From assembly GCA_016186485.1 (NCBI GenBank), contig JACPLN010000005.1, forward strand, positions 105,256 through 169,255: DNA of 64,000 nucleotides, in the 5' to 3' direction. Made by a program: the position numbers and the translations under genes. The notes beneath the pieces are model-generated. The model did not search any database. It saw nothing but the letters and a program-made list of their open reading frames with translations, and was not told the origin of the DNA. Source of the stretch: Candidatus Nealsonbacteria bacterium (lineage in GTDB: Bacteria > Patescibacteriota > Minisyncoccia > Minisyncoccales > UBA6532). Shown in pieces: positions 6,905 to 38,959 of the stretch. The number at the start of each line of letters is the position of its first letter. The stretch's first letter is position 1.

Positions 6905-7690
6905 TTGAGAATAGTAGAACCTAAGGTGTTTCTGGTCGGAGAAACCAGGATTATGAAGTCCGAATTGAATGCCTATTTAAGGCATATTGGCGTCCCAAAG
7001 TGGAAGTCGGACGCGACAACAGATGCCGAGAAGCTGACTGAGGTTTACGGGCGGCTTTGCTACAGGAGTTTCGTTCCCGGCCTCAATCCTAATGTTAAAA
7101 AAATCAGAGAGCGCAATAAGGACTATCTGGAAAACGTTATTGAGGTGAAACACGGTTCTGTATTAGAGCATATAACGCTGAATTTTATCTTTGCCGATGT
7201 CAGCCGGGTTTTCACCCACGAATTGGTCCGTCACAGGGTAGGGGTGGCAATTTCACAAGAGAGCTTGCGGTTTGTAAGACTTACTGATTTGGGATTCTGG
7301 CCGCCTTTGGCAGTCAGGGAAAACGAAAAGGTAATGGAAGTTATGTCCAATACCTTCAAGATTCTAGAGAAGCTGCAAAAAGATTTGGCGGAAGAATTAG
7401 GGCTTGATGAAGAAGATAAAAAGTTTGCTGAAAAGAAAAAGCTGACTTCGGCAATGAGAAGGATAGCGCCTCTGGGTTCAGCCACCGCTATCGGCTGGTC
7501 TACGAATATAAGGAATTTGAGACATGTAATTGAAATGAGAACTGATCCTGCGGCCGAAGAGGAAATAAGGCTGGTTTTCGGGAAAGTTGCTGAAATAGTT
7601 AAGGAGCGTTATCCAAATCTGTTTGCCGATTACGAAGTTGAAATTGCAGATGGTTTGCCCTGGTGGCATACCAAAAACAAAAAAGTATAA
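6905..7690 (+). CDS. thyX: FAD-dependent thymidylate synthase ThyX (TTG start)
   Basis: ThyX signature HELVRHRVGVAISQESLRF (RHRxxSxxxxSxR). Confidence 0.9.
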   Translation: MRIVEPKVFLVGETRIMKSELNAYLRHIGVPKWKSDATTDAEKLTEVYGRLCYRSFVPGLNPNVKKIRERNKDYLENVIEVKHGSVLEHITLNFIFADVSRVFTHELVRHRVGVAISQESLRFVRLTDLGFWPPLAVRENEKVMEVMSNTFKILEKLQKDLAEELGLDEEDKKFAEKKKLTSAMRRIAPLGSATAIGWSTNIRNLRHVIEMRTDPAAEEEIRLVFGKVAEIVKERYPNLFADYEVEIADGLPWWHTKNKKV

Positions 7691-7723
7691 AAGGCTTAAA
7701 CTCGTTCTAGCCTTTTTATTTTT
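7691..7723 (+). terminator. Intrinsic terminator after thyX
   Basis: AAGGCT (7691-7696) pairs with AGCCTT (7709-7714), followed by TTTTTATTTTT. Confidence 0.55.
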
Positions 7724-7755
7724 CGGCTGTTGACAGAAATACTATTATGTTTAAA
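7711..7755 (+). repeat. 45-bp perfect direct repeat, left copy (right copy at 8667..8711)
   Basis: CCTTTTTATTTTTCGGCTGTTGACAGAAATACTATTATGTTTAAA is identical at both sites, offset 956 bp. Confidence 0.95.
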
Positions 7756-7757
7756 AT
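7730..7757 (+). promoter_or_regulatory. Sigma70-like promoter for the tandem-repeat protein gene
   Basis: TTGACA (7730-7735), 16 nt, TAAAAT (7752-7757). The last 2 nt of the -10 lie outside the 45-bp repeat. Confidence 0.6.
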
Positions 7758-7862
7758 GGAGGTTAGCCATGAATAAATTGCTTTGGGTTGTATCTCCAAC
7801 GTGCCAGAAGGGGTGCCTTGGAGTAACTAGCCCAATAGTGAAAGAGGTTAGGAGGTGCATGT

Positions 7863-8633
7863 ATGTTGGGTAAAGTGAATGTAGACCAACTCTGCGAACT
7901 CTTCAGTCAGATAGCTGGAGGGAAAGTTACATCTGAAGCTATACAGGAATTGATTGACAAAGCGCCAAAGCTGGCGTTGCAACAGACTCTTGGGATAGTC
8001 TTGCGCCAGGCTCGTAAGACTGTAAAAGAAATCAACGACCCTCATTTACGAGCCAAAACTCTAGCAGCCATTGCCGGAGTAAGCCATGATGTCCATGACC
8101 TTGACGCAGCCAGAGAAAGCCATGATGTCCATGACCTTGACGCAGCCAGAAAACTAGTACCAGAAATCAGCCATCCTTATTCGCGAGCCGAAGTTCTAGC
8201 AGCCATTGCCGGAGTAAGCCATGATGTCCATGACCTTGACGCAACCAGAGAATCATTAGCAAAAATCACTGATCCTTACCAGCTAGCCAAAACTCTAGCA
8301 GCCATTGCCGGAGTAAGCCATGATGTCCATGACCTTGACGCAGCCAGAAAACTAGTACCAGAAATCAGCCATCCTTATTCGCGAGCCGGAGTTCTAGCAG
8401 CCATTGCCGGAGTAAGCCATGATGTTCATGACCTTGACGCAGCCAGAAAACTAGTACCAGAAATCAGCCATCCTTATTTACGAGCCAAAACTCTAGCAGC
8501 CATTGCCGGAGTAAGCCATGATGTCCATGACCTTGACGCAGCCAGAGAATCATTAGCAAAAATCACTGATCCTTACCAGCTAGCCGGAGTTCTAGCAGCC
8601 ATTGCCGGAGCATTAGCTGAAGCGCTGAAGTAA
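7863..8633 (+). CDS. Tandem-repeat protein with 33-aa helical-looking repeats (LAAIAGVSHDVHDLDAAR...); function unknown
   Basis: AGGAGG sits 8 nt upstream of the ATG. The ORF is made of near-identical 99-bp units. Own promoter and terminator. Confidence 0.75.
   Translation: MLGKVNVDQLCELFSQIAGGKVTSEAIQELIDKAPKLALQQTLGIVLRQARKTVKEINDPHLRAKTLAAIAGVSHDVHDLDAARESHDVHDLDAARKLVPEISHPYSRAEVLAAIAGVSHDVHDLDATRESLAKITDPYQLAKTLAAIAGVSHDVHDLDAARKLVPEISHPYSRAGVLAAIAGVSHDVHDLDAARKLVPEISHPYLRAKTLAAIAGVSHDVHDLDAARESLAKITDPYQLAGVLAAIAGALAEALK
8028..8630 (+). repeat. In-frame 99-bp tandem repeat array (about 5.5 units plus one internal 36-bp duplication)
   Basis: CTAGCAGCCATTGCCGGAGTAAGCCATGATGT recurs at 8061, 8196, 8295, 8394, 8493 and 8592. 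The first interval is 135 bp because of an extra 36-bp copy. Confidence 0.95.
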
Positions 8634-8651
8634 GTCCGAAAGTTCCAAGTT

Positions 8652-8679
8652 AGGGGCCACAAAGCCCCTTTTTATTTTT
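8652..8679 (+). terminator. Intrinsic terminator after the repeat-protein gene
   Basis: AGGGGC (8652-8657) pairs with GCCCCT (8664-8669), followed by a T-run. Confidence 0.6.
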
Positions 8680-8711
8680 CGGCTGTTGACAGAAATACTA
8701 TTATGTTTAAA
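8667..8711 (+). repeat. 45-bp perfect direct repeat, right copy
   Basis: Identical to 7711..7755. It ends 1 nt before the stop codon of the convergent gene 8713..9750. Confidence 0.95.
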
Positions 8712-8712
8712 G

Positions 8713-9750
8713 CTAGCGGCGCGGTTTCCTTTGGCGGGCAACCGCTCTTAGTTCTTTTAAGCAAGCCTCTGGGCTGAAAAATACCTTGCGAGCAGGGTAA
8801 ACAGTCCAGGGGCTGTATTTTTTATCCGGCCAGATTAAATAAACGATTTTGCCGTTGGAATTTGCGTAGTTGATTTCCGTTATCATTCCCGAGCTTGAGG
8901 CGACAATAGGGAAGTAGGCCACGACAAAATCGGATTGGTTGATTAATCTATAATCCCTTTTTATTATAACTTCAGCTCCCAGCGATTTTAGTTTTTGGGG
9001 GAAATGTTCAAACTTTTCCACCTTGTAGGGATCAAAGACGATCGCGATTTCATCAAGCTTTTTTATAAATTTCTCCGTTCTTTTTTTGATGTGGTCTGCG
9101 GCAAAGGTAATGGGAAAGCTGAAATATATTTTCAATCGGTTGTCAAAGATTAAACGGAAAAGAGTGTCCGGCGACTGTTCTTTCGGCAAAAGATAATATT
9201 CTTTTTTGTGTATCTGGGAAAAAAGCTCCGTGACAAACGACTCAAAATCGCGCCAGCGTATAACTCCCTCCAAATCCAGCGCCCTCCCCATGTTTTCCGC
9301 CACCTTGTCTATCCTCTCTTTTATAAATTCCAAGCCGTCAGTAATCTGGACGAAAAACAGAGGTTTTAATTTCTCAAAAAACGAGTTTAATATGTTGGCC
9401 GAGACAACTTCTTCCGGGCTTTCTTTCCACCAGTAAGTAAGATGGATGTTTATTATATTTATAGCGTCTTTTTTCAGCCTTTCCCTTAAAATATTATCAA
9501 GAGCGTCTTGGTGCCAGGCATTTCTGGTGCTTTTCGGGAAATTCAAAATATTATACCTTGTTATTTCGGCAGTCGTTTCTTTTGCCGCTTCCAGCACCTC
9601 GTCGGTTACGCTTATAACATTAACTTTTCTGCCTTTTTTAGCGCAGAATTCCGCAAAATCCTTGTAATACTCTTTTTCTCCGCAGCCGGCAATGCCGGAA
9701 GATACTATGTTGACCATATACTTTATTGTATCATTTTTTTGTGTTATCAT
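8713..9750 (-). CDS. Two-domain hypothetical protein: N-terminal kinase-like region plus C-terminal nucleoside 2-deoxyribosyltransferase-like domain
   Basis: The C-terminal pattern SDFVVAYFPIVASSSGMITEINYANSNGKIVYLIW resembles the Nuc_deoxyrib_tr superfamily. The N-terminal GIAGCGEK is only P-loop-like. The start could instead be M12 (9717). Confidence 0.45.
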   Translation of the reverse strand: MITQKNDTIKYMVNIVSSGIAGCGEKEYYKDFAEFCAKKGRKVNVISVTDEVLEAAKETTAEITRYNILNFPKSTRNAWHQDALDNILRERLKKDAINIINIHLTYWWKESPEEVVSANILNSFFEKLKPLFFVQITDGLEFIKERIDKVAENMGRALDLEGVIRWRDFESFVTELFSQIHKKEYYLLPKEQSPDTLFRLIFDNRLKIYFSFPITFAADHIKKRTEKFIKKLDEIAIVFDPYKVEKFEHFPQKLKSLGAEVIIKRDYRLINQSDFVVAYFPIVASSSGMITEINYANSNGKIVYLIWPDKKYSPWTVYPARKVFFSPEACLKELRAVARQRKPRR

Positions 9751-18800: not shown

Positions 18801-20585
18801 ATGGAAAATATCAGGAATTTTGTTATTATCGCCCATATTGATCACGGGAAGTCAACGCTGGCTGACCGGCTTTTGGAAATAACTGGTACAATTCCTAAAG
18901 AAAAAATGAAACCGCAGTATTTGGATATGATGGATTTGGAAAGAGAGAGGGGAATTACAATAAAAATGCAGCCGGTTCGCATGAACTACAATCTACATTC
19001 TACTTTCTACATTCTAAACTTGATTGATACCCCGGGTCACGTTGATTTTGCTTATGAGGTTTCAAGGTCTCTGGCTGCGGTTGAAGGAGCAATTCTTTTG
19101 GTTGACGCAACCCAAGGGGTTCAGGCGCAGACCCTGGCTAATTTGGAGCTGGCCAGGAAGCAAAATTTGGTTATTATACCCGTTGTGAACAAGATAGATT
19201 CTCCGCAGGCGAACACAGAGGAAGCGGCAATAGAGCTTTCCAAGGTTTTAGGAATAAAGAAGGAAGAAATTATAATGATTTCGGCAAGGCTCGGCACCAA
19301 TGTAGATAAAGTTCTCCTTTCTGTCATTGAAAAGGTCCCGCCTCCAAAAATTAATTTAGAGAAACCATTAAGAGCTCTGGTTTTTGATTCAGATTACGAT
19401 ACTTATAAAGGAATTCTGGCTTATGTGAGAATAATTGACGGCGAAATCAAAATGGGAGAGCAAATTCATTTAATGGCTGCAAACATATCCAGTCAGATAA
19501 AAGAAATTGGATACTTTGCTCCGGAGTTAAAGCCGGCTGATTCGTTAAAGTCTGGCGAGATAGGATATATAGCAACAGGGATAAAGGAGCCCGGCAAAGT
19601 AATGGTAGGGGATACCATCACAATTCCCAATTTCAACATTGGACCCTTGGCGGGTTATAAAGAGCCAAAGCCCGTTGTTTTTGCCAGCGTTTACCCCCAG
19701 AATCCGGACGATTTTGATTTATTGAAGATTGCTTTGGAGAAATTGAAGCTTAGCGATTACGCCCTGACTTTTGAGCAGGAACTTAAAGCAATAATCGGCA
19801 GAGGGTTCCGCTGCGGATTTTTAGGCTCTTTGCACGCGGAAATAGCGACAGAAAGATTAAAAAGGGAGTTTGGTTTGGAGGTTATAATTTCCAAACCCTC
19901 TGTTGTTTATAAAATAATTGATATTAAAGACAAGGAGCATTTTATATATTCCCCGGCCGACTGGATCAGCTACTCTTTGATCAAGGAAATCAAAGAGCCA
20001 TGGGTAAGGATAGAGGTTATTGCTCCAAGCAGGTTTTTAGGCCCAGCCTTAAATGTTTTGGAAAGCGTGTCCGGGCGCCAGGTTGGCATCGTAAACATCA
20101 GCCAAGACAAGCTTTTGGTGACATACGAATTGCCCCTAAGGGAACTGATAGTGGGATTTTACGACAATCTTAAGGGAGCCACCCAAGGGTATGCTTCAAT
20201 GAACTACGAAATTTTAGATTATAGGCAGGGGGATTTGGCAAAGCTTGAGGTTTTGGTTGCCGGCCAGAAAGAGGAAGCTTTTTCCGAGATTGTTCCCAAA
20301 GAAAAAGCTTACCAAGAGGGCAGCAGGATTGTTAAGAAGCTGAAAGATATTTTGCCTCCCCAGCTTTTTTCTGTTGCTTTGCAGGCGGTTTTCCAGGGCA
20401 AAATAATCGCCAGGGAAACAATGAGGGCAAAAGGCAGAGATGTTATCGCTCCTCTTTACGGGGGAGATTACACAAGAAAAAAGAAGCTTCTGGAAAAACA
20501 GAAAAAAGGAAAGAAAGAGTTAAAAGAAAAGGGAAAGGTTAGGATTCCGCCCAAAGTATTTTTGGAGATATTCAAGAGCCATTGA
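18801..20585 (+). CDS. lepA: Translation elongation factor 4 (LepA)
   Basis: IRNFVIIAHIDHGKSTLADR, DTPGHVDF, NKID, and the LepA C-terminal domain with a Lys-rich tail. Confidence 0.95.
   Translation: MENIRNFVIIAHIDHGKSTLADRLLEITGTIPKEKMKPQYLDMMDLERERGITIKMQPVRMNYNLHSTFYILNLIDTPGHVDFAYEVSRSLAAVEGAILLVDATQGVQAQTLANLELARKQNLVIIPVVNKIDSPQANTEEAAIELSKVLGIKKEEIIMISARLGTNVDKVLLSVIEKVPPPKINLEKPLRALVFDSDYDTYKGILAYVRIIDGEIKMGEQIHLMAANISSQIKEIGYFAPELKPADSLKSGEIGYIATGIKEPGKVMVGDTITIPNFNIGPLAGYKEPKPVVFASVYPQNPDDFDLLKIALEKLKLSDYALTFEQELKAIIGRGFRCGFLGSLHAEIATERLKREFGLEVIISKPSVVYKIIDIKDKEHFIYSPADWISYSLIKEIKEPWVRIEVIAPSRFLGPALNVLESVSGRQVGIVNISQDKLLVTYELPLRELIVGFYDNLKGATQGYASMNYEILDYRQGDLAKLEVLVAGQKEEAFSEIVPKEKAYQEGSRIVKKLKDILPPQLFSVALQAVFQGKIIARETMRAKGRDVIAPLYGGDYTRKKKLLEKQKKGKKELKEKGKVRIPPKVFLEIFKSH
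18984..19018 (+). repeat. Degenerate heptanucleotide array (AACTACA ATCTACA TTCTACT TTCTACA TTCTAAA) inside lepA
   Basis: Read directly. It encodes NYNLHSTFYILN just upstream of the DTPGH motif. Confidence 0.7.
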
Positions 20586-20610
20586 CAGGGTTAAAGATAT
20601 AACCTATAAT
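20582..20610 (+). promoter_or_regulatory. Consensus sigma70 promoter
   Basis: TTGACA (20582-20587), 17 nt, TATAAT (20605-20610). Confidence 0.7.
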
Positions 20611-20631
20611 ATATTCGGTTCGTCAAAATTG

Positions 20632-21078
20632 ATGGGATCAGAAAGAAGAGAAATAGCAGCAAAGGAAACTTCATGGCATCGCAGGTTAAGGAAAAAGCAT
20701 GTTACAAAACCGATTTTTTTTATTCTGCTAATAGTAACGATATTTTGGTTTGCCGGAATCCCTATTTATGCACGCACATCAGGGGCGGGTCTAATCCATC
20801 TTACCAGCAAAGAAACGAGGGTTAGTGGCATAGGAACAATGGAAGATATCAAAAATGCTAGCGTTAGGTTTGATGGTTCTCAATTAATCTTTACTGTTGA
20901 TGGACAAATAAGGAGCATCAAACACATAGGCTCCGGGGCCTTTCAGGAAGAGTTTGCCGTAGGGAATACTGTTGTTGTTATCAACGGAATTACAGAGCGG
21001 GGCGAAGTCTTTTTTGTCAAAATATCTTATTACCAAGGCCAAACCAAATCTTCTTTCCAAACATCTCTACCCGAATAA
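20632..21078 (+). CDS. Hypothetical single-pass membrane protein
   Basis: One TM helix (PIFFILLIVTIFWFAGIPIY). The leader is identical to that of the next gene. Confidence 0.5.
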   Translation: MGSERREIAAKETSWHRRLRKKHVTKPIFFILLIVTIFWFAGIPIYARTSGAGLIHLTSKETRVSGIGTMEDIKNASVRFDGSQLIFTVDGQIRSIKHIGSGAFQEEFAVGNTVVVINGITERGEVFFVKISYYQGQTKSSFQTSLPE

Positions 21079-21110
21079 ATAGTTCGTTCCGTACTCCCCG
21101 CATAATGCCC

Positions 21111-21139
21111 TTGACAGATATAAGAATACATGATATTAT
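21111..21139 (+). promoter_or_regulatory. Sigma70 promoter with extended -10
   Basis: TTGACA (21111-21116), 17 nt, TGA-TATTAT (21134-21139). Confidence 0.65.
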
Positions 21140-21160
21140 ATATTCGGTTCGTCAAAATTG

Positions 21161-21754
21161 ATGGAATCAAGAAAAATACTGACCGTGAAAAAGGGTTCGT
21201 GGCACTACCTGCTAGCGAAAGTACTTGATGACCTCTGGGGTTCGGATATCACTCTCTCGCGCGATGGCTGCAGTTACAGAAGAGGATTAGGCATAGGTGT
21301 TTTCTTTACAGCCATGCCGGTCTTTATGGCGATAGGCATTTTCGCAATTGTCTTTCCCCCAAAAGAGCCATTCTTATCAGCATTTTCCGTCTTAACCCCG
21401 ATATATGGGATAGCAACCCTAATCGAACTAATTGTTCTGTGGGAGAACATGAGCGAGAACAAAAAGCGTCCAGTACAGAGAGTTCTTGGTCCTATTGCAA
21501 AAGTTCTTGATAGGGCATTCGCAAGATGGGATCGCGCGCGTCTTGTCGTAGACAGGACAATAGATGAGCTCTTATCACCGCTAGGGACCCTCATAGACTA
21601 TCTGTGGGAAAGAATTCACGCGCGGCGAATGGCGAGCAGACAGCAAAAGCCCAAAGCCATAAAAGCAGAAAGACAAAAACAGCCAAACCTATTCTTTCTT
21701 TGGATTAAGGCCAAGAAAGAAAGATACTGCCCGCTAATAGAATTCGTGCCATAA
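21161..21754 (+). CDS. Hypothetical membrane protein
   Basis: Two or three TM helices. The N-terminus (K.GSWH) resembles the preceding gene. GC is higher than the surroundings. Confidence 0.5.
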   Translation: MESRKILTVKKGSWHYLLAKVLDDLWGSDITLSRDGCSYRRGLGIGVFFTAMPVFMAIGIFAIVFPPKEPFLSAFSVLTPIYGIATLIELIVLWENMSENKKRPVQRVLGPIAKVLDRAFARWDRARLVVDRTIDELLSPLGTLIDYLWERIHARRMASRQQKPKAIKAERQKQPNLFFLWIKAKKERYCPLIEFVP

Positions 21755-27451: not shown

Positions 27452-30400
27452 ATGCCATACAAAAGCATTAGCCGTTTTTTTAAAAAGGTTGCGGTTTTTT
27501 TTATCGCCATAGTTACAATTTTCGGCGTAACTAATCCTTTTTTGTTTTTGCCGAAAATTGTTTTTGCCCAAGATACCGTTCCTCCAAACATTAATCATTG
27601 GTCTGCTTGGCAGGCAGACGGCGACGCTGTTGTCACTACCACTCTTTATGTCCACGCTTTTGTAGGAGATAACACAGCTACACCCGGTTCCACTCTTGTG
27701 GTGTCAGCTCTTTCTAAGAGCGCGGGTTGGGGCGGTTTCTCAAGCAGCACTTGTTACGCCGAATACAGCGATACCAATCAGTTCAGGTGTCCGATTGGAA
27801 TACAGGGCGGTTCCGATGCCAGAACATTTAACTATTATTTAGAAGCTTTTGACGGTGAAAATAAGTCTTGGAGATCCTGGGCAACAGATACCAATAGTTT
27901 AAATAACGCCAAAAATTATCCTTTTCAAACAACAGTCTACAACGCTCCAAGCTGGACTAACGGTATTTCAGCCGAGGTTACAGACGGCCGGCATTACAAT
28001 TTTAGCCGAGGGATACAGGTCGCCACCTCAACCTTATATATTTCTTCCACCACCGACAGTACGGCCAACTTGGCGGTAAACGACTGGATAATTTTAAAGA
28101 GCACTACAGGGGCGTCTGAGCCAAAAGTAAAGATTCTGGCAATTAACGGTTTTGGCCAAACCGCTACGGAATACGAGGTTCAGATTTCAGGCTATACGCC
28201 TCACAACTTTACCACTTCTGATTATGTTAACGAATTCGTAGACAACGCTTTGGTTTTCATTGACGGCACAACGGCTTACGCTACCACCACAGCTGTCCAA
28301 GCCACCACTACTTTCGGCGCCATAAGTTTATACAATGTTCCTAACGGCAGTTTTGATGTGACTGCTTTTAAACAGGGTTACACAGAGCATAGGATTACTA
28401 ATGTTTATCTTTCCGGCACCTCAACTTCTACTTTAAGGTTTGTTTTGCCTTTTGGAGGTTTTCAGGGCGGAGCCAATCTTGGCGGAACTTCTGTCAGCTG
28501 GTCAGCTCCTTCAAATGGAATGACCGGAGCCCCGGCTAATATCGGTATCGCCCAACAGCCGATTTTAGTCGCTTTTTCCGGAAACGCTTCTTCCACTACC
28601 ATCAGTAAAAATAATATTACTTTGAAAGTTGCCAATCCCGACGGCACTTTTACTGCTTTTTCCGGATACTATAACGTGGCTTATGAAGCCCAAGGGACAA
28701 ATGTCAGCATTGGCGGCACAAATTATGATTTCGGGCCCGATGCCAAAGCCATTGTTTATTCTTCTACCACCTTGGCCACTTCCACGGGTTATGTTGTTCG
28801 TTTGAACAATAATGTTAAGGATGCCAACAATAGCCCCATAAATGGCAACGACCCCCAAGGCGGCCACACAGTCTTTTTCAGCACTTCTGGCGGATTTTTC
28901 TCCGGGGGGGCTGGAATTACTGTCGGCAATTTTGGCAGCGGAGGATCCTTTATGCCGCCTTTTGCGCTCAATGTGATGCCAAACTCTGGTTCGGTGAATG
29001 TTGCCAGAAACACTAAAATCGCTGTCCAGTTTGACCAGCCAATGTCAGCTTCATCTCTTTCTAGCAACATTGAATTAAAGGCCTTGAGTTCTACTTTCCA
29101 AGAAGGGGATTCGGTCACTTTTACAGCAGCGCTTTCTGACACCGATAAATCTCTTTTGATTATTACTCCTTCCAGCAATCTGGCAGCTAGCATCAGGTAT
29201 AAAGTTAAGCTTTTAGGCGGTTTGCAGTCTTCTTCCGGCGTGTCTATGGCTCCGCCGGGGTCTGCCTCAACGAAGATGTTTGAGTTTGAATTTACAACAG
29301 GCTCTTTAACAGATAGCGCAGCTCCAACGATTTTAGCTGCCGGCCTTGACAGATTTTTAGTCGGCTCAACCTACACTGGCGTGCCGGTTTCGGGTATTTT
29401 GAAAGTTTCTTTTTCAGAATCAATTGATCCTACGACGGTCAATGCGTCTAATGTTTACCTAAGAAGAAAGGGCAGTACAAGCAATATTTCTGGCGACGTA
29501 AAATACGATATTATGGAAGGCAAAGTGCTTTTGGCTCCTTCTACCGCCCTTAATGCCACCACCACCTATATTTTGACTTTGACAGGCTATATTAAAGATC
29601 TGACCGGCGCTCAAAACGCTTTGGCAACCACTACTTATGAGTTTACTACCGGAGGGGTTGACGTGACCGGCCCGGCCTTGTCATTCTTTAACGCTGACGA
29701 TTACTCTTTATCTTTGACCTTTGACGAGCCTATGAACTCTGCGGCCATCACGGACACTAATACCTGGCCGTCCGGCTCCACCAAATGGCAGACTTCCGTT
29801 TTGAATCCGTCAAACTACATAGTTTATGTTGATGACGGGGCTCCGACTACAGGTGCTTTTGCAAAGTATTTTAACGTTGACAGTTTGGCAAGTTCAAGCG
29901 CACCCTCGGTTACTTTGACATATGACTCCATGTTTAAGACTATAAAAATTAAAGGAATGCAGTTATTTGCGGGCTCTTCAGGAGTGAGCAGCGATTCAAG
30001 CAGAAGAGGGGCAAGGGTTTGGATAAAAAATGCAACTGATATTTCCGGAAATGTCATTCAGGCAAATGTCGGCCCTGACGCCGAAGCCGATAATTTTGGT
30101 TCAAATGCAGCTGGAGGACCTGTCAAGAATTCTCAGAGCACTTTCGGCCAAATGGGTCCTGGCGGAGGAATGTTTGCTCCGCCTTCTACAGCCGGCAGTT
30201 TCACTATTACCGATTTTGGCGGAAAGAACCCAGCAATGATGGGTATGATGCCTGTTGGTATTTGGCCTATGAATATGATGGCTGGCGCCACTTCAACTTA
30301 CATGATGGATATTCCCGTGTCTTCCGGCAAAGCCATTCCGGCTTCGGGGAAAATCGTTATTGGTCCTTTCCCTGACGAAGCCAATGTTTCTTTGGTTAGG

Positions 30401-33400
30401 GATGCCGATCCCAACAAGACATTTGCTCACAGGGATATTAATGGCCCGGGAACAGGCACGGTTACCATTGCCTCGGTTTCAGTTTCCGGCCAGACAGTTA
30501 CAGTAACTCTGGGTACTACCGGCACTCAAGCCCCAGACTTTATTCATTTGGAATTGGATAATATCAAGAATCCGACCACCCCTACCCAAAGCGGCTATAA
30601 GGTCAGCATCCAGACCCAGAAAGCTGACAGTACGGCCCTGGAATCTTTCACCTCAATGCCCTTCTTTATAACGCCAAAAGGGAAATACGTTATTATAGGC
30701 CATGTTACAGCAACAGATGTTGGGCTTAACGGAGTTCAGGTATTTGGCGGTTCTCCTTCAACCGGGCCTTTGTTTGCCAATTCCAGCAACAGCGCTTTCG
30801 GTTCTTCCACTGACGGCGAATTTAAAATTGAGGGATTAAATGCCGGAGACGTGATGTTAATGACAGAGCAGTCTATCACAATAGGCGCTGATGAATATAT
30901 AGCTTCTTTCCCGGAGCCCATCCATTTGGATGATAGCACCACTAATAATAATTCCGGAGCCGCCAAAGGTGGATTGACCGGCTGCACAAGCACCACCGCT
31001 TGTTATGGTTACAAAAAGATTACTCTGACTAGAGTGGCAGCGGGCACAACCCCGGGTTTAGTGGTTTATATTTACGGCAATTTTGCTACCACTACCGGGG
31101 CTGGTTATGCCACCATTGATATTTTTGCCGGCGGACAAAACGGTTTTAAAGTGAAAGAGGTGTCACTAAACGGCGATTATAGTTCTACTCCTTATTCCAC
31201 TTTGTTGAGTTTGCCTAATACCGGCAGCTATTTTGTCGGCATAGGGCCTGCTATGCCAAAAACAATGGGCAAGTCAGCTCCTCCAATGCCGACTACCTGG
31301 ATGCCGCCAAAACCGGTAAACGTCAATGTTTCTGGGTCTGGCGGAACTTGGACTTGGGTGGAATCTGACTCAGCCTCAACAGGGACATCAACCGCTGACG
31401 GCTTGGTAAAGTTTACTATTGTTTCAGCCAACAAAACCATTTCCGGCCACGTTTACGACACTTCCGGCAACGCTGTTACCAATGCCCAAGTTTTTGCTTA
31501 TTCTCCGAATGGTTCCTTTGGAAACAGCACGTATGTCGGGCAAAACGGATCATTTAGCCTTCAGGTTAGCACCGGATTTTACAAAATCGGCGCATTCTTG
31601 CCAGGCGCTCCTCCGACAAACGAAATCGGGGTGGAAGTTAAATCCAGTGCCGTTCTTGTTGATGGAATTACCACCACAGACGTTATCTTAAAGATTAGTA
31701 AGGACATACAGTCAGGCTATACTATTTCGGGCACTGTCTATTCGGACACAAGCTCCCAGTATCCGGCCTCAGACGCTTCTGTGTATGCTTACAGAACGGA
31801 TGGCCCGGGCAACACCGAAACAATGACGGATTCCAAAGGAACTTATACCCTTTATGTTGGTATCGGTACCTGGAAAGTGGGGGTTTTCCTTCCTTCTCAC
31901 GGAAAACTTACCGAACAGACGGTCAGTGTTTCTCCGTCAAAATCAGGCCTTAAGTTTACTCCGGATACAACGACCAATTATGTCACCATTAGAGAGAGGG
32001 TTTGGGAAGATCAGAATGACGACGGCGTTGTTGATTCTGGAGAAGGAATTGCCAAGGCGACAGTAACCTTTGTCGCCACCAGCACGGCCTATGTCAACAC
32101 GGCTGTTACCGATTCCAGCGGCGTTTATGAAATTAAGGTTCCCGCTACCACTACTTACGATATTTATGTTTGGTCGCCGGATATTGGCAATTTAGCGCCT
32201 CAAAAGAATACCATAGTTACCAGCACCAACATTATTTACACTTCTTTTTCTGACTATGCTGACATGAGAACGGAAAAAGCCACCACTGTTGAGTTTGGAA
32301 TATATGATTCCAACAATGTGGCTACAACCGTTGATAAATTACTTATTCAATTGGACAGGATAGGCGTGTTCGGGGTGAGCAACGACGTTTATAAAGAGAA
32401 AGTTGCCACTACTACTATTAGGGTTGCCACTAGTACCAGACCTTATATTCTGGATGCTAGAATAGAAGGCATTCCCAAGGGTTTGCTGACCTTTACTACT
32501 TTTGATGCCAATACCGCTTTAACAACCACGACAGTTGGCACCAAGAGATTTGCCACAACTACCGTTAATGATTATGAGAAGATAAAGATACTTCTGCCGC
32601 CGGTTAGCTATGTTTCTGGCCAGGTTAGAGACGATAGCGGCAATGGTATTTCCAATGCTGTCTTGCACATTGAACAGCCGGGAACCGATGTTGAGTTTGA
32701 TGTTGATACTGACAGTTCAGGCAACTATTCTTTCAGAGTGGCCTCAAGTACTACTCCTTACCTAATACAGGCAAACGTTTCAGGATATATAGATTCAGCT
32801 GATTCAGTTTATGCTTCAAGTACGTCTTTAACCTATAACCCGAGCGTCAAGAAAGCAAACTTTACAATTTCAGGACAGGTTACTATTAATGGGTCGGCTC
32901 CTTCCGGCACAAGCGTGTATGTTTGGGCGGAGAAGCTGGGCGGCGGATACGGGGCCACTGCCAAGGGAGATCCTTCTACAGGCGCCTACACTTTGTCTAT
33001 TACCGAAGGAAGTTGGGAGGTTGCTGCTTCCGCCGAAGGTTATTCGGCTTTAACTAAACCGGTTATTGTTGATGTTTCAGGAAACAATGTTTCTGGCATA
33101 GGCTTTGATATCGCTTCTGAAGCAACGACCCAAAAACCGCAGAACTTGAGCATGGCAGGAAATGTCGGAGGCACTGTTACCAACAAGGATTCCGGTTTTG
33201 AAATGTCAGTTCCGACGGGTACCATTTCTGCCTCAGACTCAAGCTCATACAATGTAAAGGAGAAAGAAGTTTCCAACATCCCGACCTATACTCCAACTGG
33301 TAATTTGGTCGGTAACACAGCAGAAGAGGTTTCTGCTTATAAGATGTCGGGGTCAGGAGGAAATGTCAGCACTGTTTCCGGGTTGAATGGTTCCGCGTTT

Positions 33401-34552
33401 GTTGATAAGACATTCACGGTAGCCCAATTGGCAACCGAGGGTATTACTACGACTGACCAGGCAGAAGAGGTAAAGATGGGAAGTTATGATACTTCCGCTC
33501 AAAACTGGACAATGATGCCAACTACAATTACTTATCTAAACAACGCCGACCAACCCATTGTGCCTACTTCAACAAATCTTTCGTTGGGCATTTCCAAAGT
33601 CGTCTTTAACGGCGTAACCAAGCACTTTTCAACCTTCGGTGTGATTAATTCTAAGTTTGACGGACTGGCTCCTTCAGCTCCCACTGGGGTTGCGGTAACA
33701 GTTTCCGGCAACCAGGCAACTGTTTCTTGGAACGCGGTTACTACAAATGCCGATGGCACTGCTGCCGGTGATCTGCAAAAGTATGCAATCTATAGGTCTT
33801 CAGGATCATCCGGTCCCTGGACAAAGATTACTACCGTACCGGTTGGCACCACTTCTTATACAGATACTTTGCCTTCAGGAGGTACTTCCTACTACAAAGT
33901 AACGGCTGATACCGGTTTGCAGTCTGATTTCTCAGGTTCTTCTGGCGGCGTCAGCCCTTCAAGCGGCGGATCAGAAAATATAGTTTCTACTCCTTCTTCT
34001 GGGGGCGGCGGGGTATCAACCCCTCCTCCGGCCTCTCCAGCCGCTCCTTCAGTTCCACCAGAAACGCCAAAGAAAATAGCTGAGGCTCCGGCAGCCCCAA
34101 AAGCAGAAGTAAAAGCCGAGAAAAAGCTTACCGTGACCTTTGACAAGCCAATCAGCAAGATGACAAAAGCAGAGATTCAGGTAAAAATAGCCGAAATTCT
34201 GGAGGTGATTAATAATTTGAAAGAAATGATTAAAGAGGTCGCAACATCTGTTATTGAAGGGATTCCTTCTGGATTCAAGTTTGAAAGGACTATAAAGCCA
34301 GGATCCGCAAGCGATGATGTAAAGTACATCCAGATTATTTTGAATTCTGACCCAGACACAAGAATATCGGGATCAGGCGCCGGCTCTCCGGGTAAAGAAA
34401 CGAATTACTTTGGATCCATAACCAAAGCCGCATTAATCAAATTCCAAGAAAAGTACGCTTCCAAGATTTTGGCTCCTTGGGGATTGATTAAAGGGACGGG
34501 AACTCTTGGAAATAACACTAGGGATAAATTGAACGAGATTATTGGTAAATAA
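27452..34552 (+). CDS. Giant (2366 aa) cell-surface protein: signal/anchor, Ig-like (SbsA/Big_5-like) domains, CarboxypepD_reg-like repeats, FN3, C-terminal peptidoglycan-binding domain
   Basis: N-terminal hydrophobic segment. Repeated ISG.V.D..G..V.NA.V.. motifs. FN3-like APSAPTGVAVTVSGNQATVSWNAV...YAIYRSS. C-terminal PG_binding_1-like DDVKYIQIILN...GSITKAALIKFQEKY. Thr/Ser/Gly-rich. Confidence 0.8.
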   Translation: MPYKSISRFFKKVAVFFIAIVTIFGVTNPFLFLPKIVFAQDTVPPNINHWSAWQADGDAVVTTTLYVHAFVGDNTATPGSTLVVSALSKSAGWGGFSSSTCYAEYSDTNQFRCPIGIQGGSDARTFNYYLEAFDGENKSWRSWATDTNSLNNAKNYPFQTTVYNAPSWTNGISAEVTDGRHYNFSRGIQVATSTLYISSTTDSTANLAVNDWIILKSTTGASEPKVKILAINGFGQTATEYEVQISGYTPHNFTTSDYVNEFVDNALVFIDGTTAYATTTAVQATTTFGAISLYNVPNGSFDVTAFKQGYTEHRITNVYLSGTSTSTLRFVLPFGGFQGGANLGGTSVSWSAPSNGMTGAPANIGIAQQPILVAFSGNASSTTISKNNITLKVANPDGTFTAFSGYYNVAYEAQGTNVSIGGTNYDFGPDAKAIVYSSTTLATSTGYVVRLNNNVKDANNSPINGNDPQGGHTVFFSTSGGFFSGGAGITVGNFGSGGSFMPPFALNVMPNSGSVNVARNTKIAVQFDQPMSASSLSSNIELKALSSTFQEGDSVTFTAALSDTDKSLLIITPSSNLAASIRYKVKLLGGLQSSSGVSMAPPGSASTKMFEFEFTTGSLTDSAAPTILAAGLDRFLVGSTYTGVPVSGILKVSFSESIDPTTVNASNVYLRRKGSTSNISGDVKYDIMEGKVLLAPSTALNATTTYILTLTGYIKDLTGAQNALATTTYEFTTGGVDVTGPALSFFNADDYSLSLTFDEPMNSAAITDTNTWPSGSTKWQTSVLNPSNYIVYVDDGAPTTGAFAKYFNVDSLASSSAPSVTLTYDSMFKTIKIKGMQLFAGSSGVSSDSSRRGARVWIKNATDISGNVIQANVGPDAEADNFGSNAAGGPVKNSQSTFGQMGPGGGMFAPPSTAGSFTITDFGGKNPAMMGMMPVGIWPMNMMAGATSTYMMDIPVSSGKAIPASGKIVIGPFPDEANVSLVRDADPNKTFAHRDINGPGTGTVTIASVSVSGQTVTVTLGTTGTQAPDFIHLELDNIKNPTTPTQSGYKVSIQTQKADSTALESFTSMPFFITPKGKYVIIGHVTATDVGLNGVQVFGGSPSTGPLFANSSNSAFGSSTDGEFKIEGLNAGDVMLMTEQSITIGADEYIASFPEPIHLDDSTTNNNSGAAKGGLTGCTSTTACYGYKKITLTRVAAGTTPGLVVYIYGNFATTTGAGYATIDIFAGGQNGFKVKEVSLNGDYSSTPYSTLLSLPNTGSYFVGIGPAMPKTMGKSAPPMPTTWMPPKPVNVNVSGSGGTWTWVESDSASTGTSTADGLVKFTIVSANKTISGHVYDTSGNAVTNAQVFAYSPNGSFGNSTYVGQNGSFSLQVSTGFYKIGAFLPGAPPTNEIGVEVKSSAVLVDGITTTDVILKISKDIQSGYTISGTVYSDTSSQYPASDASVYAYRTDGPGNTETMTDSKGTYTLYVGIGTWKVGVFLPSHGKLTEQTVSVSPSKSGLKFTPDTTTNYVTIRERVWEDQNDDGVVDSGEGIAKATVTFVATSTAYVNTAVTDSSGVYEIKVPATTTYDIYVWSPDIGNLAPQKNTIVTSTNIIYTSFSDYADMRTEKATTVEFGIYDSNNVATTVDKLLIQLDRIGVFGVSNDVYKEKVATTTIRVATSTRPYILDARIEGIPKGLLTFTTFDANTALTTTTVGTKRFATTTVNDYEKIKILLPPVSYVSGQVRDDSGNGISNAVLHIEQPGTDVEFDVDTDSSGNYSFRVASSTTPYLIQANVSGYIDSADSVYASSTSLTYNPSVKKANFTISGQVTINGSAPSGTSVYVWAEKLGGGYGATAKGDPSTGAYTLSITEGSWEVAASAEGYSALTKPVIVDVSGNNVSGIGFDIASEATTQKPQNLSMAGNVGGTVTNKDSGFEMSVPTGTISASDSSSYNVKEKEVSNIPTYTPTGNLVGNTAEEVSAYKMSGSGGNVSTVSGLNGSAFVDKTFTVAQLATEGITTTDQAEEVKMGSYDTSAQNWTMMPTTITYLNNADQPIVPTSTNLSLGISKVVFNGVTKHFSTFGVINSKFDGLAPSAPTGVAVTVSGNQATVSWNAVTTNADGTAAGDLQKYAIYRSSGSSGPWTKITTVPVGTTSYTDTLPSGGTSYYKVTADTGLQSDFSGSSGGVSPSSGGSENIVSTPSSGGGGVSTPPPASPAAPSVPPETPKKIAEAPAAPKAEVKAEKKLTVTFDKPISKMTKAEIQVKIAEILEVINNLKEMIKEVATSVIEGIPSGFKFERTIKPGSASDDVKYIQIILNSDPDTRISGSGAGSPGKETNYFGSITKAALIKFQEKYASKILAPWGLIKGTGTLGNNTRDKLNEIIGK

Positions 34553-35815: not shown

Positions 35816-36784
35816 ATGAATTTTCAATTTTCAATTTCTAATTTCCAAAAAAATGTTCCGTTAAACAATCATACTACGTTTAAAATCGGGGGGCCGGCGA
35901 AATATTTTTTTGCCGCCAAAACAAAAGAAGATATAATTCAGGCGATAAATTGGGCAAAGAAAAACGATCTGCCGTTTTTTATTTTGGGAGGCGGCAGCAA
36001 TATGGTGGTTTCAGACAAAGGCTTCAACGGCCTTGTTATAAAAATACAAACCACAAACTATAAACTGCAAGCTGCAAGATTGCATGCCGAGGCCGGTGTT
36101 CTAATAGAAACGCTGGTAAGGGAAACCGGTAAGTTAGGGTTGTCCGGTTTTGAATGGGCCGGGGGATTGCCAGGGACTTTAGGAGGGGCAATAAGAGGGA
36201 ACGCCGGAGCCTTTGGAGGAGAAATCAAAGACAATATAATTGAAGTTGAGGCGCTGGATAATAAGGGAAGAATTAGAAAATTTTCTAAAAAACAATGCCG
36301 GTTTTCTTACAGGGATTCTATTTTCAAAGATAAAAACTGGATTATTCTTTCGGCAATTTTTGTATTTAAAAATGGGGATGGGGAAAAAATTAAAGAAGCG
36401 GCAAGGGAACACATTAATTACCGCAAAGAAAGACACCCTCTTGAATACCCAAGCGCCGGCAGCGTTTTTAAAAACTGCGATTTAAAAGATGTGCCAATAA
36501 ATATCAGAAATTTTTTTAAGGATGTTGTGAAAACAGATCCTTTCCCTGTTGTGCCAGCAGCCGCCATTATAGCCAGAGCCGGTTTAAAGGGATTAAGGGC
36601 TGGGGGGGCCGAAGTTTCGGAAAAACACCCCAACTATATTGTTAATAAAGACAATGCGAGAGCGGTTGATGTGCTGAAACTTATAAAAATGGTTAAGAAA
36701 AAGGTTAAAGAAAATTTTGGGATAAAGCTAGAGGAAGAGATACAGTTGTTGGGTTTTTCTTCAAATAATTTATTGACAAAATAA
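35816..36784 (+). CDS. murB: UDP-N-acetylenolpyruvoylglucosamine reductase
   Basis: FAD-binding TTFKIGGPAKYFF, GGGSNMVV, and C-terminal SAGSVFKN. I prefer ATG 35816. Confidence 0.9.
   Translation: MNFQFSISNFQKNVPLNNHTTFKIGGPAKYFFAAKTKEDIIQAINWAKKNDLPFFILGGGSNMVVSDKGFNGLVIKIQTTNYKLQAARLHAEAGVLIETLVRETGKLGLSGFEWAGGLPGTLGGAIRGNAGAFGGEIKDNIIEVEALDNKGRIRKFSKKQCRFSYRDSIFKDKNWIILSAIFVFKNGDGEKIKEAAREHINYRKERHPLEYPSAGSVFKNCDLKDVPINIRNFFKDVVKTDPFPVVPAAAIIARAGLKGLRAGGAEVSEKHPNYIVNKDNARAVDVLKLIKMVKKKVKENFGIKLEEEIQLLGFSSNNLLTK
35821..35848 (+). repeat. Heptanucleotide array (TTTTCAA x2, TTTCTAA, TTTCCAA) forming codons 2-11 of murB
   Basis: Read directly. It encodes NFQFSISNFQ. Confidence 0.85.
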
Positions 36785-36801
36785 TCGCTTCATGCTAGCA
36801 T
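36773..36801 (+). promoter_or_regulatory. Sigma70-like promoter of paralog A; overlaps the last codons and stop of murB
   Basis: TTGACA (36773-36778), 17 nt, TAGCAT (36796-36801). Homologous to the promoter at 38040. Confidence 0.6.
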
Positions 36802-36817
36802 CTTACTAGGTGAAAAA

Positions 36818-37489
36818 TTGAACCTTAACAAGTACGTATATCCTAAGGGCTACAAAGTAAAGAACATTACGGAGCAGACCAACATCTTGCGTCAGTTATT
36901 CCCCGGAATAGGCTATGCTGACGAGAGAATAGTCAAAGGACCTTTGCCGGAGGGAGCCGAAGGATGGTTCGCCATCCCGAGGTGGGATAGTATCGCGCAT
37001 ACCTACAACGAGGCGGTGGATAAGGTGCTGAAAATGCTCAAGCAACAGTGCAAAGGCAGGTTCTATAACTACCGCGAGCACCATATAACAGATTGGTTGC
37101 AACAAACCAATAAGGCAATGAAGATGTTCTATAAGATATGGCAAGAGCAGGATGGATACGACATTCTCGTAGTTCCGGCGCAGTTCGGTCTCCGTCATCG
37201 GGGCCTTTCCATTAGGCAGGCTCGGAATGCCATGAATGTCATGGAGTTTGGTTTCGGCGCTTTCGCCGTCGGTATCATGCTATTGATCCATCCCGAGCGG
37301 GAAGTCCAGTGGGAACAGCTCCACGTTCTATGCGCTGGTGACGACTTCAGTATCATCTATGTCGAGTCCTTGCGCGAGCCGTTTTTCGACTTCTACAACG
37401 GCGAGGTAAAGTTCGACAACTGCTTGGAACATAGCTACGACGATCGCTACGGTTCCGCGTCGGGATTTGTCTCGTCCTCCTCCGTATAA
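36818..37489 (+). CDS. Unassigned protein family, paralog A (223 aa, TTG start)
   Basis: TAGGTGA SD-like sequence then TTG. Shares blocks GAEGWFAIPRW, YNEAV, PAQFGLRHRG, HPEREVQWEQLH and C-terminal GSASGFVSSSSV with 38085.. and 55518.. Confidence 0.8.
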   Translation: MNLNKYVYPKGYKVKNITEQTNILRQLFPGIGYADERIVKGPLPEGAEGWFAIPRWDSIAHTYNEAVDKVLKMLKQQCKGRFYNYREHHITDWLQQTNKAMKMFYKIWQEQDGYDILVVPAQFGLRHRGLSIRQARNAMNVMEFGFGAFAVGIMLLIHPEREVQWEQLHVLCAGDDFSIIYVESLREPFFDFYNGEVKFDNCLEHSYDDRYGSASGFVSSSSV

Positions 37490-38068: not shown

Positions 38069-38084
38069 CTTAGTAGGTGAAAAA

Positions 38085-38909: not shown

Positions 38910-38959
38910 AGAACTAGCCCAAAAATATCTTTTGTATTAAAATTAAGATATAAATTATA

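Follow-up and report, generated by a model that had tools for sequence, protein, structure and literature searches.

A perfect 45-bp direct repeat, CCTTTTTATTTTTCGGCTGTTGACAGAAATACTATTATGTTTAAA, brackets a single gene for a predicted helical-repeat protein in a 64,000-nucleotide stretch of DNA (hereafter the window) from a groundwater Candidatus Nealsonbacteria genome. The arrangement is most probably a scar left by a local duplication or insertion, in a gene slot whose content varies among relatives; a novel type of mobile element is no more than a possibility. In the leading explanation, to which we assign a probability of roughly 0.45, the 45-mer marks a duplication junction that formed between two similar terminator tails and is not a dedicated recombination site. 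If this ordinary reading holds, the locus provides a clean, datable case of reduced-genome symbiotic bacteria gaining, and being able to lose, a single gene, through recombination of look-alike terminators in a conserved nucleotide-salvage neighborhood with a changing middle slot. The locus further points to a family of small, rapidly evolving helical-repeat proteins whose leader hairpin occupies the same place in three loci. Should the cassette prove mobile, the Candidate Phyla Radiation would gain a new class of mobile elements of very small size.

The 45-bp repeat and the unit it bounds

The two copies of the 45-mer lie on the + strand at positions 7711-7755 and 8667-8711 and are identical at 45/45 positions. 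No third copy with three or fewer mismatches occurs in the 64-kb window, and the chance expectation for such a repeat is 0 (100 dinucleotide shuffles). Identity ends abruptly at each edge; aligned locally, the outer and inner flanks score no better than shuffled sequence and reveal no diverged homology past the edges. The only partial matches elsewhere in the 64 kb are to the common terminator tail TTTTTATTTT, and neither JGI metagenome contigs nor viral contigs contain the repeat's 31-mer core. The exact search, the shuffles and the sharp ends of identity together bear out the preliminary description, which had reported the 45-mer twice at these positions. Its further claim, that perfect identity implies a recent event, is only weakly constrained: zero differences over 45 sites have a chance of 0.64 at 1% divergence and still of 0.05 at 6.5%, so with this few sites the age of the repeat is bounded only loosely.

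The repeat is also present in other sequencing runs. Logan contigs (k=31) from runs SRR12113420, SRR12113422 and SRR12113424 are 100% identical to the window and stop at 7740 from the thyX side (SRR12113420, SRR12113424) and at 8682 from the opposite side (all three runs). Both break points fall exactly k-1 = 30 nt inside the repeat, as fits a 45-nt sequence with two left and two right contexts, which shows that the repeat is real in the reads. Unitigs of k=31 are too short to span a 45-nt repeat, and the breaks are compatible with a mix of filled sites, empty sites and circles.

Each copy combines the tail of a terminator with the head of a promoter-like site. The 45-mer consists of a terminator tail of 13 nt (CC followed by TTTTTATTTTT), the six bases CGGCTG, and the predicted promoter of the unit from its -35 element through the fourth base of its -10 element. 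The left copy begins in the 3' arm of the predicted thyX terminator hairpin, the right copy in that of the repeat-protein gene, and each supplies the U-tract. The thyX intrinsic terminator (7689-7723, + strand) has a stem at 7689-7696/7709-7716, a 12-nt loop and a U-tract extending to 7723; the final six stem bases and the entire U-tract lie within the left 45-mer. Its hairpin folds at -7.8 kcal/mol (z=-3.0) and, being U-rich on both strands, is predicted to act bidirectionally. The cargo terminator (8652-8679, + strand), called by the terminator scan, has the stem AGGGGC/GCCCCT (8652-8669) followed by a U-tract; its final three stem bases and the U-tract lie within the right 45-mer, and the minus strand lacks a U-tract. 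This hairpin folds at -11 kcal/mol (z=-2.8). The signature of an intrinsic terminator, a stable GC-containing hairpin with an immediate U-tract, is present at both places in sequence and fold. Several other GC-rich hairpins of the window are also followed by TTTTTATTTT tails, which gives terminators microhomology with one another.

The left copy contributes to the promoter-like site TTGACA-16-TAAAAT (7730-7757, + strand), with its -35 element at 7730-7735 and its -10 element at 7752-7757. The last two bases of the -10 element (AT, 7756-7757) fall outside the repeat, and the completed site matches the consensus at 11/12 positions and is the top-scoring site between 6500 and 10500 in a sequence-only promoter scan. 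The junction between repeat and adjacent AT was therefore correctly described as completing a promoter-like element. Sites of the form TTGACA-N16-18-TAnnnT are common in the genome; several lie between ORFs, and three start with TTGACAGAA. At the right copy the corresponding sequence reads TTGACA-16-TAAAGC (8686-8713, + strand; -10 position 8708-8713), lacks the conserved final T and is not called by the promoter scan. This second promoter remnant comprises the first 26 nt only and faces the convergent gene: base 8712 is a G, and 8713-8715 (CTA) form the stop codon of that minus-strand gene. The truncated site thus points into the stop codon from one base away, as had been noted.

Between the copies lie 911 bp, which comprise a leader of 105 nt, a single ORF and the 5' side of the terminator hairpin and which, with one 45-mer, make up a unit of 956 bp; the geometry, with exactly one gene plus its leader and terminator between the copies, is as first reported. 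The leader (7758-7862, + strand) is predicted to fold into a long two-tier hairpin (7778-7841), followed by an AGGAGG Shine-Dalgarno sequence (7850-7855). An Rfam search of leader and cassette returned no match even at E<=1. A small ORF of 34 aa (7769-7873) was treated as non-coding, with no family match and no obvious counterpart in two homologous leaders; its Shine-Dalgarno sequence lies directly after the -10 element and is probably not transcribed.

The cargo gene, its family and its neighborhood

The cargo gene (7863-8633, + strand) encodes a protein of 256 aa with an N-terminal domain of ~55 aa and about 5.5 helical repeats of 33 aa. The gene is built of 99-bp tandem repeats and contains exact internal repeats of up to 74 bp. 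The AlphaFold2 model is all-helical (pLDDT 75); tandem helix-turn-helix repeats of ~33-34 aa that stack into a solenoid characterize the TPR-like alpha-solenoid class, whose features the modeled protein shows. None of the Pfam TPR models reaches threshold on the cargo protein itself. A HMMER search yields 342 matches, including ~20 small proteins that share the N-terminal domain. The long proteins among the matches share the repeats; the three that were checked are STAND/NACHT-TPR proteins carrying NACHT/NPHP3_N domains, two of them also with TPR Pfam domains. The family of small helical-repeat proteins evolves fast: in one cluster at 90% identity, lengths of 78, 111 or 144 aa correspond to one, two or three repeats. 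The exact cargo protein is not on record in a look-up, probably an effect of internal repeats breaking short-read assemblies.

Several leads from this protein and its composition were set aside. The gene has 48% GC, compared with 42% in the window, and its dinucleotide signature sets it apart as an outlier, but this is uninformative about a foreign origin: the gene is Ala-rich and repetitive, and its GC3 of 0.36 is ordinary and within the range of its neighbors. The PDB match 8vd6 is a de novo designed repeat protein and says only 'helical repeat', weak SDR and LRV_2 matches represent repeat noise, and the PHROG and PADLOC matches that might have linked the protein to phages or defense are sub-threshold and caused by the repeats. 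Searches of phage records (tblastn), plasmids (blastn) and viral contigs returned no match or relative.

Homologues of the cargo gene occur at two other, unrelated genomic positions, L006 and L032. In each, a TTGACA-17-TAnACT promoter of its own lies some 95 nt before the ATG and is followed by a leader hairpin of ~60 nt, the same layout as in the window (105 nt). The leader hairpin is equivalently placed in all three loci, with compensatory changes between L006 and L032. Judged from sequence, this layout fits a cognate promoter for the cargo gene; a junction at the -10 element would keep the spacing too, and a captured resident -35 element therefore stays a rival. The homologue at L032/L033, which belongs to another lineage, lies between direct repeats of ~160 nt that are 77% identical; they duplicate the 3' end of the upstream gene (C-terminus TrmD-like), and the copies are diverged and frame-preserving. 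They resemble the ends of two orthologous genes that homeologous recombination has brought together, not a common att site. No flanking repeat was found at L006, and the 45-mer shows no similarity to the L032 flank repeat.

The cassette lies between two identified genes. Upstream of the left repeat lies thyX, an FAD-dependent thymidylate synthase gene (6905-7690, + strand; Pfam Thy1, E=1e-38), whose product matches at 100% identity an NCBI protein that takes its name from a Candidatus Nealsonbacteria MAG. Downstream, the convergent gene (8713-9750, - strand; start at 9717 according to gene callers) encodes a fusion of P-loop kinase-like (AAA_17) and nucleoside 2-deoxyribosyltransferase-like (NDT-like) domains in Pfam; its exact product is present on Logan contigs, and homologues reach 50-73% identity. 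Four relatives (L007, L009, L010 and L019) share the order tmk-thy-deoC-><-NDT-like, and three others (L029-L031) the order tmk-thyX-(144-aa gene)-NUDIX-p154. In two of the latter (L029, L030), a hairpin and T-tract follow thyX at the same position as in the window. At this slot, the repeat-protein gene is missing from every relative that shares the flanking genes. The cargo gene is thus lineage-specific at the thyX/NDT-like slot, whose content differs between related Parcubacteria.

The preliminary description had suggested looking in related genomes for an empty site, with thyX, a single 45-mer and then the convergent gene. Such a site was found in none of the collections searched: a thyX scan of GTDB species genomes returned nothing, and an alignment scan with the NDT-like protein across GTDB species genomes and JGI metagenome contigs recovered only relatives with deoC or other neighbors. 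The closest relatives, at 77% (thyX) and 73% (NDT-like) protein identity, are too distant to show the state before the event. Neither a deoC remnant nor a deoC gene elsewhere was found in the window, which by blastn and tblastn also holds no paralogue of the cassette. It does contain other duplicated promoter-gene-terminator units, in tandem at 20578/21107 and dispersed at 36.8, 38.1 and 55.5 kb.

Origin of the repeat

As a duplication junction, the 45-mer would be the tail-to-head joint of a self-contained cargo unit with a sigma-70-type promoter, a hairpin leader, a coding sequence and an intrinsic terminator. The joint may have arisen by recombination or template switching between the thyX tail (...AGCCTTTTT) and the cargo tail (...GCCCCTTTTT). 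One route would be a head-to-tail duplication of the 956-bp unit, the second copy of which was subsequently lost as far as the neighbor's stop codon; another, one repair or replication event in which about 40 nt from the tail-promoter region upstream were copied to the far side of the gene. The left copy would then end the thyX transcript and start the cargo transcript, while the right copy would give the cargo its U-tract and leave a dead promoter stub, and recombination between both copies would permit scar-free loss of the gene. We infer the promoter and terminator activities, as well as the order and type of the mutational events. Several observations count in favor of a duplication junction. 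Both copies begin within a predicted terminator hairpin, relatives carry a hairpin and T-tract in the corresponding place after thyX, and similar tails offer microhomology; only the left copy has a complete promoter, the repeat itself holding TTGACA and 4/6 bases of the -10 element; three further promoter-like sites in the window share the -35 context TTGACAGAA; both homologues show the same promoter and leader layout; the GC3 of the cargo gene falls within the range of its neighbors; recent internal duplications abound in the cargo gene, and whole promoter-gene-terminator units are duplicated elsewhere; and the searches found no terminal inverted repeats, no recombinase match among the ORFs tested and no metagenome or viral copy of the 31-mer core. 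The single gene copy counts against the tandem route, which therefore needs a second event, a deletion ending 1 nt from the neighbor's stop codon. The direct repeat at L032/L033 hints that members of this gene family repeatedly acquire duplicated flanks, a pattern not expected of a purely local accident.

The reading put forward in the preliminary description, an insertion or duplication capturing a resident -35 element, stands as regards the geometry and the lineage-specific gene; the empty site did not appear, the recency is weakly bounded, and the capture itself is not favored. It would have a promoterless segment of 911 bp (7756-8666) inserted between thyX and the convergent gene by staggered cuts or microhomology-mediated template switching, duplicating a 45-bp target whose TTGACA...TAAA was completed by the AT of the insert. 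The perfect repeat bounds such an insert exactly, the first 13 nt of the 45-mer resemble a native thyX terminator tail, both junctions lie in -10-like and T-tract sequence that offers microhomology with a donor promoter or terminator, and a variable slot could keep the promoter remnant of an earlier occupant such as deoC. We nevertheless consider it unlikely. The 45-mer supplies the -35 element, four -10 bases, the end of the cargo stem and the U-tract, and the 911-bp insert would therefore be bare, without promoter and terminator tail; both its ends would have been completed by luck, in a target offering a perfect -35 element at the right spacing as well as the exact three stem bases and U-tract for the insert's terminator. 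The homologues, moreover, carry their own TTGACA promoters at a similar distance from the ATG. Target duplications of transposons usually measure 2-14 bp, well short of the 45 bp seen here. The two ends of the insert, ATGGAGGTTAGCC... and ...GGGGCCACAAAGC, do not form an inverted repeat, the repeat scan finds no inverted pair spanning the cassette ends, and no transposase is encoded among the cassette ORFs and 20 less obvious window ORFs. Far less probable than such a capture is an assembly chimera, in which a cassette from elsewhere or from a co-occurring strain was threaded in through a shared 45-mer, an artefact of the kind that the preliminary description had raised. The source is a metagenome-assembled genome, and the exact internal repeats of the cargo gene could be mis-assembled in copy number. 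Typical short reads, however, are longer than a 45-nt repeat, three independent k=31 assemblies stop exactly at the repeat when approached from either outer flank, which requires two contexts per side in the reads, and a segment that starts and ends with the repeat must lie between two copies or be a circle.

The 956-bp unit might instead be a small non-autonomous mobile cassette, with a circular form in which the 45-mer joins terminator to promoter, integrating and excising at the 45-mer through a recombinase in trans or RecA, much like an att-flanked cis-mobilizable element. We judge this improbable, somewhat more so than capture of a resident -35 element. Perfect direct repeats surround one complete unit whose circular form would keep promoter and terminator intact, the gene is at this site only in this lineage and has homologues at unrelated sites, and the L032/L033 homologue is likewise flanked by direct repeats. 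Set against this, neither the cassette protein nor the 20 less obvious window ORFs match a recombinase, the 45-mer is unlike the L032 repeat and has no further copy in the window, the metagenome contigs or the viral contigs, the L032 copies suggest homeologous gene-end recombination, L006 lacks a flanking repeat, and phage and plasmid relatives are absent from the records searched. Slightly more doubtful again is a broader version, in which the repeat-protein unit would be a tiny Parcubacteria cassette that travels as a ~1-kb circle or concatemer and inserts after housekeeping genes with long flank duplications (45 bp at thyX, ~160 bp at the TrmD-like gene of L032/L033), its junction doubling as terminator tail and promoter so that the gene is expressed wherever it lands.

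Comparison with known systems

A literature search for cassette-like elements in Patescibacteria and for the run accessions returned nothing useful, and the locus is best placed by comparison with better-known arrangements. As in att-flanked cis-mobilizable elements (CIMEs) and other integrative elements that duplicate the 3' flank of a housekeeping gene, perfect direct repeats (45/45) bound a small insert just downstream of such a gene, and scar-free excision would be possible. The 45-mer, however, is a terminator tail plus promoter and not a gene 3' end; no integrase was found among the tested ORFs, and no further att-like copy in the window, JGI metagenome contigs or viral contigs. Integron cassettes are likewise single-gene units bounded by a repeated sequence, but the unit here has its own promoter, inspection by eye finds in the 45-mer no evident imperfect palindrome of the attC kind, the GTTTAAA at its 3' end departs from the GTTRRRY core, and the tested ORFs include no intI. 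Insertion sequences form hybrid promoters from an outward -35 element in the IS end and a resident -10 element. Capture of a resident -35 element would similarly draw two hexamers from different DNA segments across a junction, with the roles reversed: the -35 and most of the -10 element would be resident, two bases would come from the insert, and no IS is present. The evidence lends no support to hexamer segments of different origins.

Homology-facilitated illegitimate recombination after DNA uptake offers a further comparison. It fits the diverged, frame-preserving flank copies at L032/L033, as well as a variable slot between conserved flanks; the window repeat differs in being perfect, 45 bp long and non-coding, with no identifiable donor and anchor. 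Join-points of tandem duplications formed via short repeats differ from the locus in that one gene copy is present here and the second promoter is cut after four -10 bases. With a single copy and a cut promoter abutting the neighbor's stop codon, the comparison holds only if a further deletion or a double template switch took place. The likeness lies in the repeated segment itself, which is the tail of a unit followed by its head, in the similar terminator tails (CCTTTTT...) that would be the recombining sites, and in a window that carries other duplicated promoter-gene-terminator units.

The 45-bp repeat and its context

Two perfect copies of the 45-mer CCTTTTTATTTTTCGGCTGTTGACAGAAATACTATTATGTTTAAA lie on the plus strand at 7711–7755, after thyX, and at 8667–8711, before the convergent nucleoside 2-deoxyribosyltransferase-like (NDT-like) gene. 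No further matches with up to three mismatches were found, and none arose in 100 shuffles. Identity stops sharply at all four edges of the repeat, and aligning the outer and inner flanks locally gives scores no higher than for shuffled sequence. The copies start 956 bp apart and enclose 911 bp of unique DNA (the cassette) comprising a 105-nt leader, a single ORF, and the 5′ portion of a terminator hairpin. The left copy supplies all but the final two bases of a promoter-like TTGACA-16-TAAAAT (7730–7757), which matches 11 of 12 positions and is the top-scoring such site within the surrounding 4 kb in a promoter scan. The right copy reads TAAAGC at the same position, where the scan made no call, and the minus-strand gene at 8713–9750 has its stop codon directly after base 8712. 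Every descriptive statement of the preliminary description is confirmed.

Both copies begin part-way through the 3′ arm of a hairpin predicted to be a terminator, and provide its U-tract. The thyX hairpin (7689–7716, −7.8 kcal/mol) takes CCUUUU from the left copy, the cargo hairpin (8652–8669, −11 kcal/mol) takes CCU from the right copy, and UUUUUAUUUUU comes after both. The order within the 45-mer is terminator tail, six bases, TTGACA, then TAAA 16 nt on. The repeat is a terminator tail plus most of a promoter, resembling the joint where one transcription unit gives way to another. TTTTTATTTT tails also follow several other GC-rich hairpins of the window, and TTGACA-N16-18-TAnnnT sites are common in it; several lie between ORFs, and three start with TTGACAGAA as the cassette promoter does. 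Of the two hairpins, only that of thyX is U-rich on both strands, so the convergent gene would have lost the terminator closest to it, and its transcription may run through the cargo gene in antisense.

Public assemblies support the reality of this structure. The ThyX sequence shows 100% identity to an NCBI protein from a Candidatus Nealsonbacteria MAG, and Logan assemblies built with k=31 from three other runs yield contigs that agree with the window at 100% identity. In two runs the contigs on the thyX side stop at 7740, and in three runs those from the opposite side stop at 8682. Both points lie exactly 30 nt (k−1) inside the repeat, as expected of a de Bruijn graph when a 45-nt sequence has two different contexts on its left and two on its right. 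Any segment that has the repeat at both ends must either be circular or sit between two copies, and k=31 graphs do not distinguish a fixed arrangement from one mixed with empty sites or circles. The break points, together with this segment, make an assembly artefact very unlikely. At 1% divergence, 45 bases would remain identical with probability 0.64, and at 6.5% with probability 0.05; the cargo gene's internal repeats diverge by 6–18% and paralogues in the window by 12–21%. The event, previously judged recent from the perfect identity, is younger than these duplications but need not be very recent.

The cargo gene and its homologous units

The cargo ORF (7863–8633, plus strand) encodes 256 residues, mostly from 99-bp tandem repeats, and reached no family in Pfam, NCBIfam, PHROG or PADLOC. 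A word-indexed search of 5.8 billion clusters returned a single homologue, P0001, and a full HMMER search of 1.84 billion representatives gave 342 matches. Many of these are long proteins that have only the repeats in common with the cargo; NACHT/NPHP3_N domains were present in the three checked in Pfam, alongside TPR repeats in two. About 20 matches are small proteins that share the cargo's ∼55-residue N-terminal domain as well. The AlphaFold2 model of the cargo is an all-helical solenoid (pLDDT 75) whose structure matches are generic solenoids. Members of the 90%-identity cluster of P0001 (P0288–P0292, one from Candidatus Wildermuthbacteria) measure 78, 111 or 144 residues, corresponding to one, two or three repeats. 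Whole 33-residue repeats account for these differences within one cluster, and repeat number seems to change quickly in the family. The cargo is a TPR-like repeat protein that rapidly gains and loses repeats, and a binding or adaptor role would be a guess. Its gene holds exact internal repeats of up to 74 bp (8022–8610), which make its repeat count less certain, and a 36-bp partial duplication (8073–8150). The family was seen here in groundwater samples only, in two Parcubacteria groups, Nealsonbacteria and Wildermuthbacteria.

Homologous units occupy other loci. On contig L006, the unit encoding P0001 lies upstream of mnmA; on L032/L033, identical in two samples, the unit encoding P0144 has a gene with a TrmD-like C-terminus on its upstream side and a 16S rRNA gene on the other. 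Each has its own terminator and, about 95 nt ahead of the ATG, a TTGACA-17-TAnACT promoter of its own, and a two-tier ∼60-nt leader hairpin is conserved with compensatory changes between them. The window matches this layout, with 105 nt from −10 to ATG and the hairpin at 7778–7841 (∼292–357 in L006, ∼340–398 in L032), 10–20 nt upstream of the Shine-Dalgarno sequence in all three genes. The hairpin corresponds to no Rfam family and may be a regulatory element of the cargo gene family. The shared layout fits a cognate promoter for the cassette but falls short of proof, since a junction formed at the −10 would keep the spacing too. A 34-residue ORF (MNKLLWVVSPTCQKGCLGVTSPIVKEVRRCMYVG, 7769–7873) with GGAGGT ahead of its start overlaps the cargo gene start, and no obvious equivalent of it appears in the leaders of the homologues; because its Shine-Dalgarno sequence directly adjoins the −10, translation is improbable.

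The L006 unit has no flanking repeat. The L032/L033 unit is bracketed by a direct repeat of ∼160 nt at 77% identity, or ∼190 nt counting an indel (86–273 and 848–1030 in L032, identical in L033), with no sequence relationship to the 45-mer. This repeat is the 3′ end of the upstream gene, the one with the TrmD-like C-terminus, recurring after the unit's terminator and followed by a promoter and the 16S rRNA gene. The downstream copy stays in frame for ∼50 codons, across an in-frame 5-codon indel recognized by eye in the two translations; of 35 codons that align, 24 match exactly, 6 show synonymous and 5 non-synonymous differences. The repeat looks less like a decayed target duplication than like two orthologous versions of a gene end joined when foreign DNA recombined there, as if homeologous recombination had left the recipient's own gene end behind. 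The 16S rRNA gene itself begins at about 1576 of L032 and is apparently interrupted after ∼80 nt by an insertion with an ORF from 1695 (region 1576–1930). Such rRNA insertions are known in Candidate Phyla Radiation bacteria.

The variable slot after thymidylate synthase

Relatives were placed in contigs through homologues of the convergent gene (50–73% identity) and of thyX (74–77%). The window reads tmk-thyX-cassette, then the convergent NDT-like gene, NUDIX and p154. Contigs L007–L010 and L019 read gyrB-nusG-L11-dCMP deaminase-tmk-thymidylate synthase-deoC, then the convergent NDT-like gene, and the thyX-nearest group (L029–L031) reads tmk-thyX, a 144-residue paralogue of p154, NUDIX and p154. 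deoC was not found anywhere in the window. Comparison of these orders reveals conserved flanks around a variable slot, which holds the repeat-protein gene in this genome only among the relatives compared. The empty site envisaged by the preliminary description was found in no relative, and all are too distant to display the immediate ancestor. The contig of the closest NDT-like relative (L013, 73%) ends 77 bp beyond the gene, in another convergent terminator.

The thymidylate synthase also differs between relatives while tmk and the NDT-like gene stay on either side. The window encodes a 261-residue ThyX (6905–7690), L007 (3653–4381) and L019 (6770–7369) a 242-residue ThyX just 27% identical to it, and L009 a ThyA (7820–8491) in the same position, a case of non-orthologous displacement. 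The convergent gene (8713–9750) fuses a P-loop kinase-like domain to the nucleoside 2-deoxyribosyltransferase-like domain. It has full-length relatives at 34–36% identity (L015–L017) in MAGs of Candidatus Aenigmatarchaeota (DPANN archaea), and JGI annotates relatives as ‘adenylate kinase.’

Elsewhere in the window, three paralogues of a ∼225–245-residue gene (36773–37598, 38040–38913, 55455–56307) share 79–88% identity and have no Pfam match; a promoter-like stretch is common to two, as is a terminator sequence (CGGAAACTCTCGGGT.TTTTAATCCTTGAGTTCTTTTTTATTTT). A tandem small-gene pair (20578–20647 and 21107–21176) is 79% identical over promoter and 5′ end. The window also has a 2366-residue ORF (27452–34552), and at 61203–61643 and 61678–62058 an RNase H/RVT_3-like gene directly adjoins the minus-strand gene for RNase P RNA (Rfam RF00010).

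Origin of the arrangement

We tentatively favor, at a probability of roughly 0.45, the reading that the 45-mer is a duplication junction formed without dedicated machinery. Recombination or template switching between two look-alike terminator tails would have placed a ‘tail + promoter’ copy behind the gene, either by head-to-tail duplication of the unit and later loss of the second copy, or by a single repair or replication event with two switches. Other duplicated promoter-gene-terminator units are present in the window, and the cargo gene is full of recent internal duplications. The preliminary description had instead proposed that a promoterless insert generated a 45-bp target duplication and captured a resident −35 element. 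This appears less likely, gaining plausibility if the TTGACA segment were a promoter remnant of the slot's earlier occupant; it needs the target to complete the insert's promoter and also its terminator. More doubtful still is a mobile cassette that can form a circle and uses the 45-mer as an att-like site: the direct repeats are perfect, a circle would contain an intact promoter and terminator, and a second homologue is also flanked, but no recombinase was found in the cassette protein or in 20 other ORFs of the window, no att sequence is shared with the L032/L033 repeat, and the 45-mer was found nowhere else in the window, nor its 31-mer core in JGI metagenome contigs or viral contigs.

The feature is real and has a neat structure. 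Its most probable origin is a mutational scar of an ordinary sort, left around a gene that is specific to this lineage and occupies a variable slot. On the residual chance of true mobility, the arrangement would mark a very small mobile cassette of Parcubacteria.
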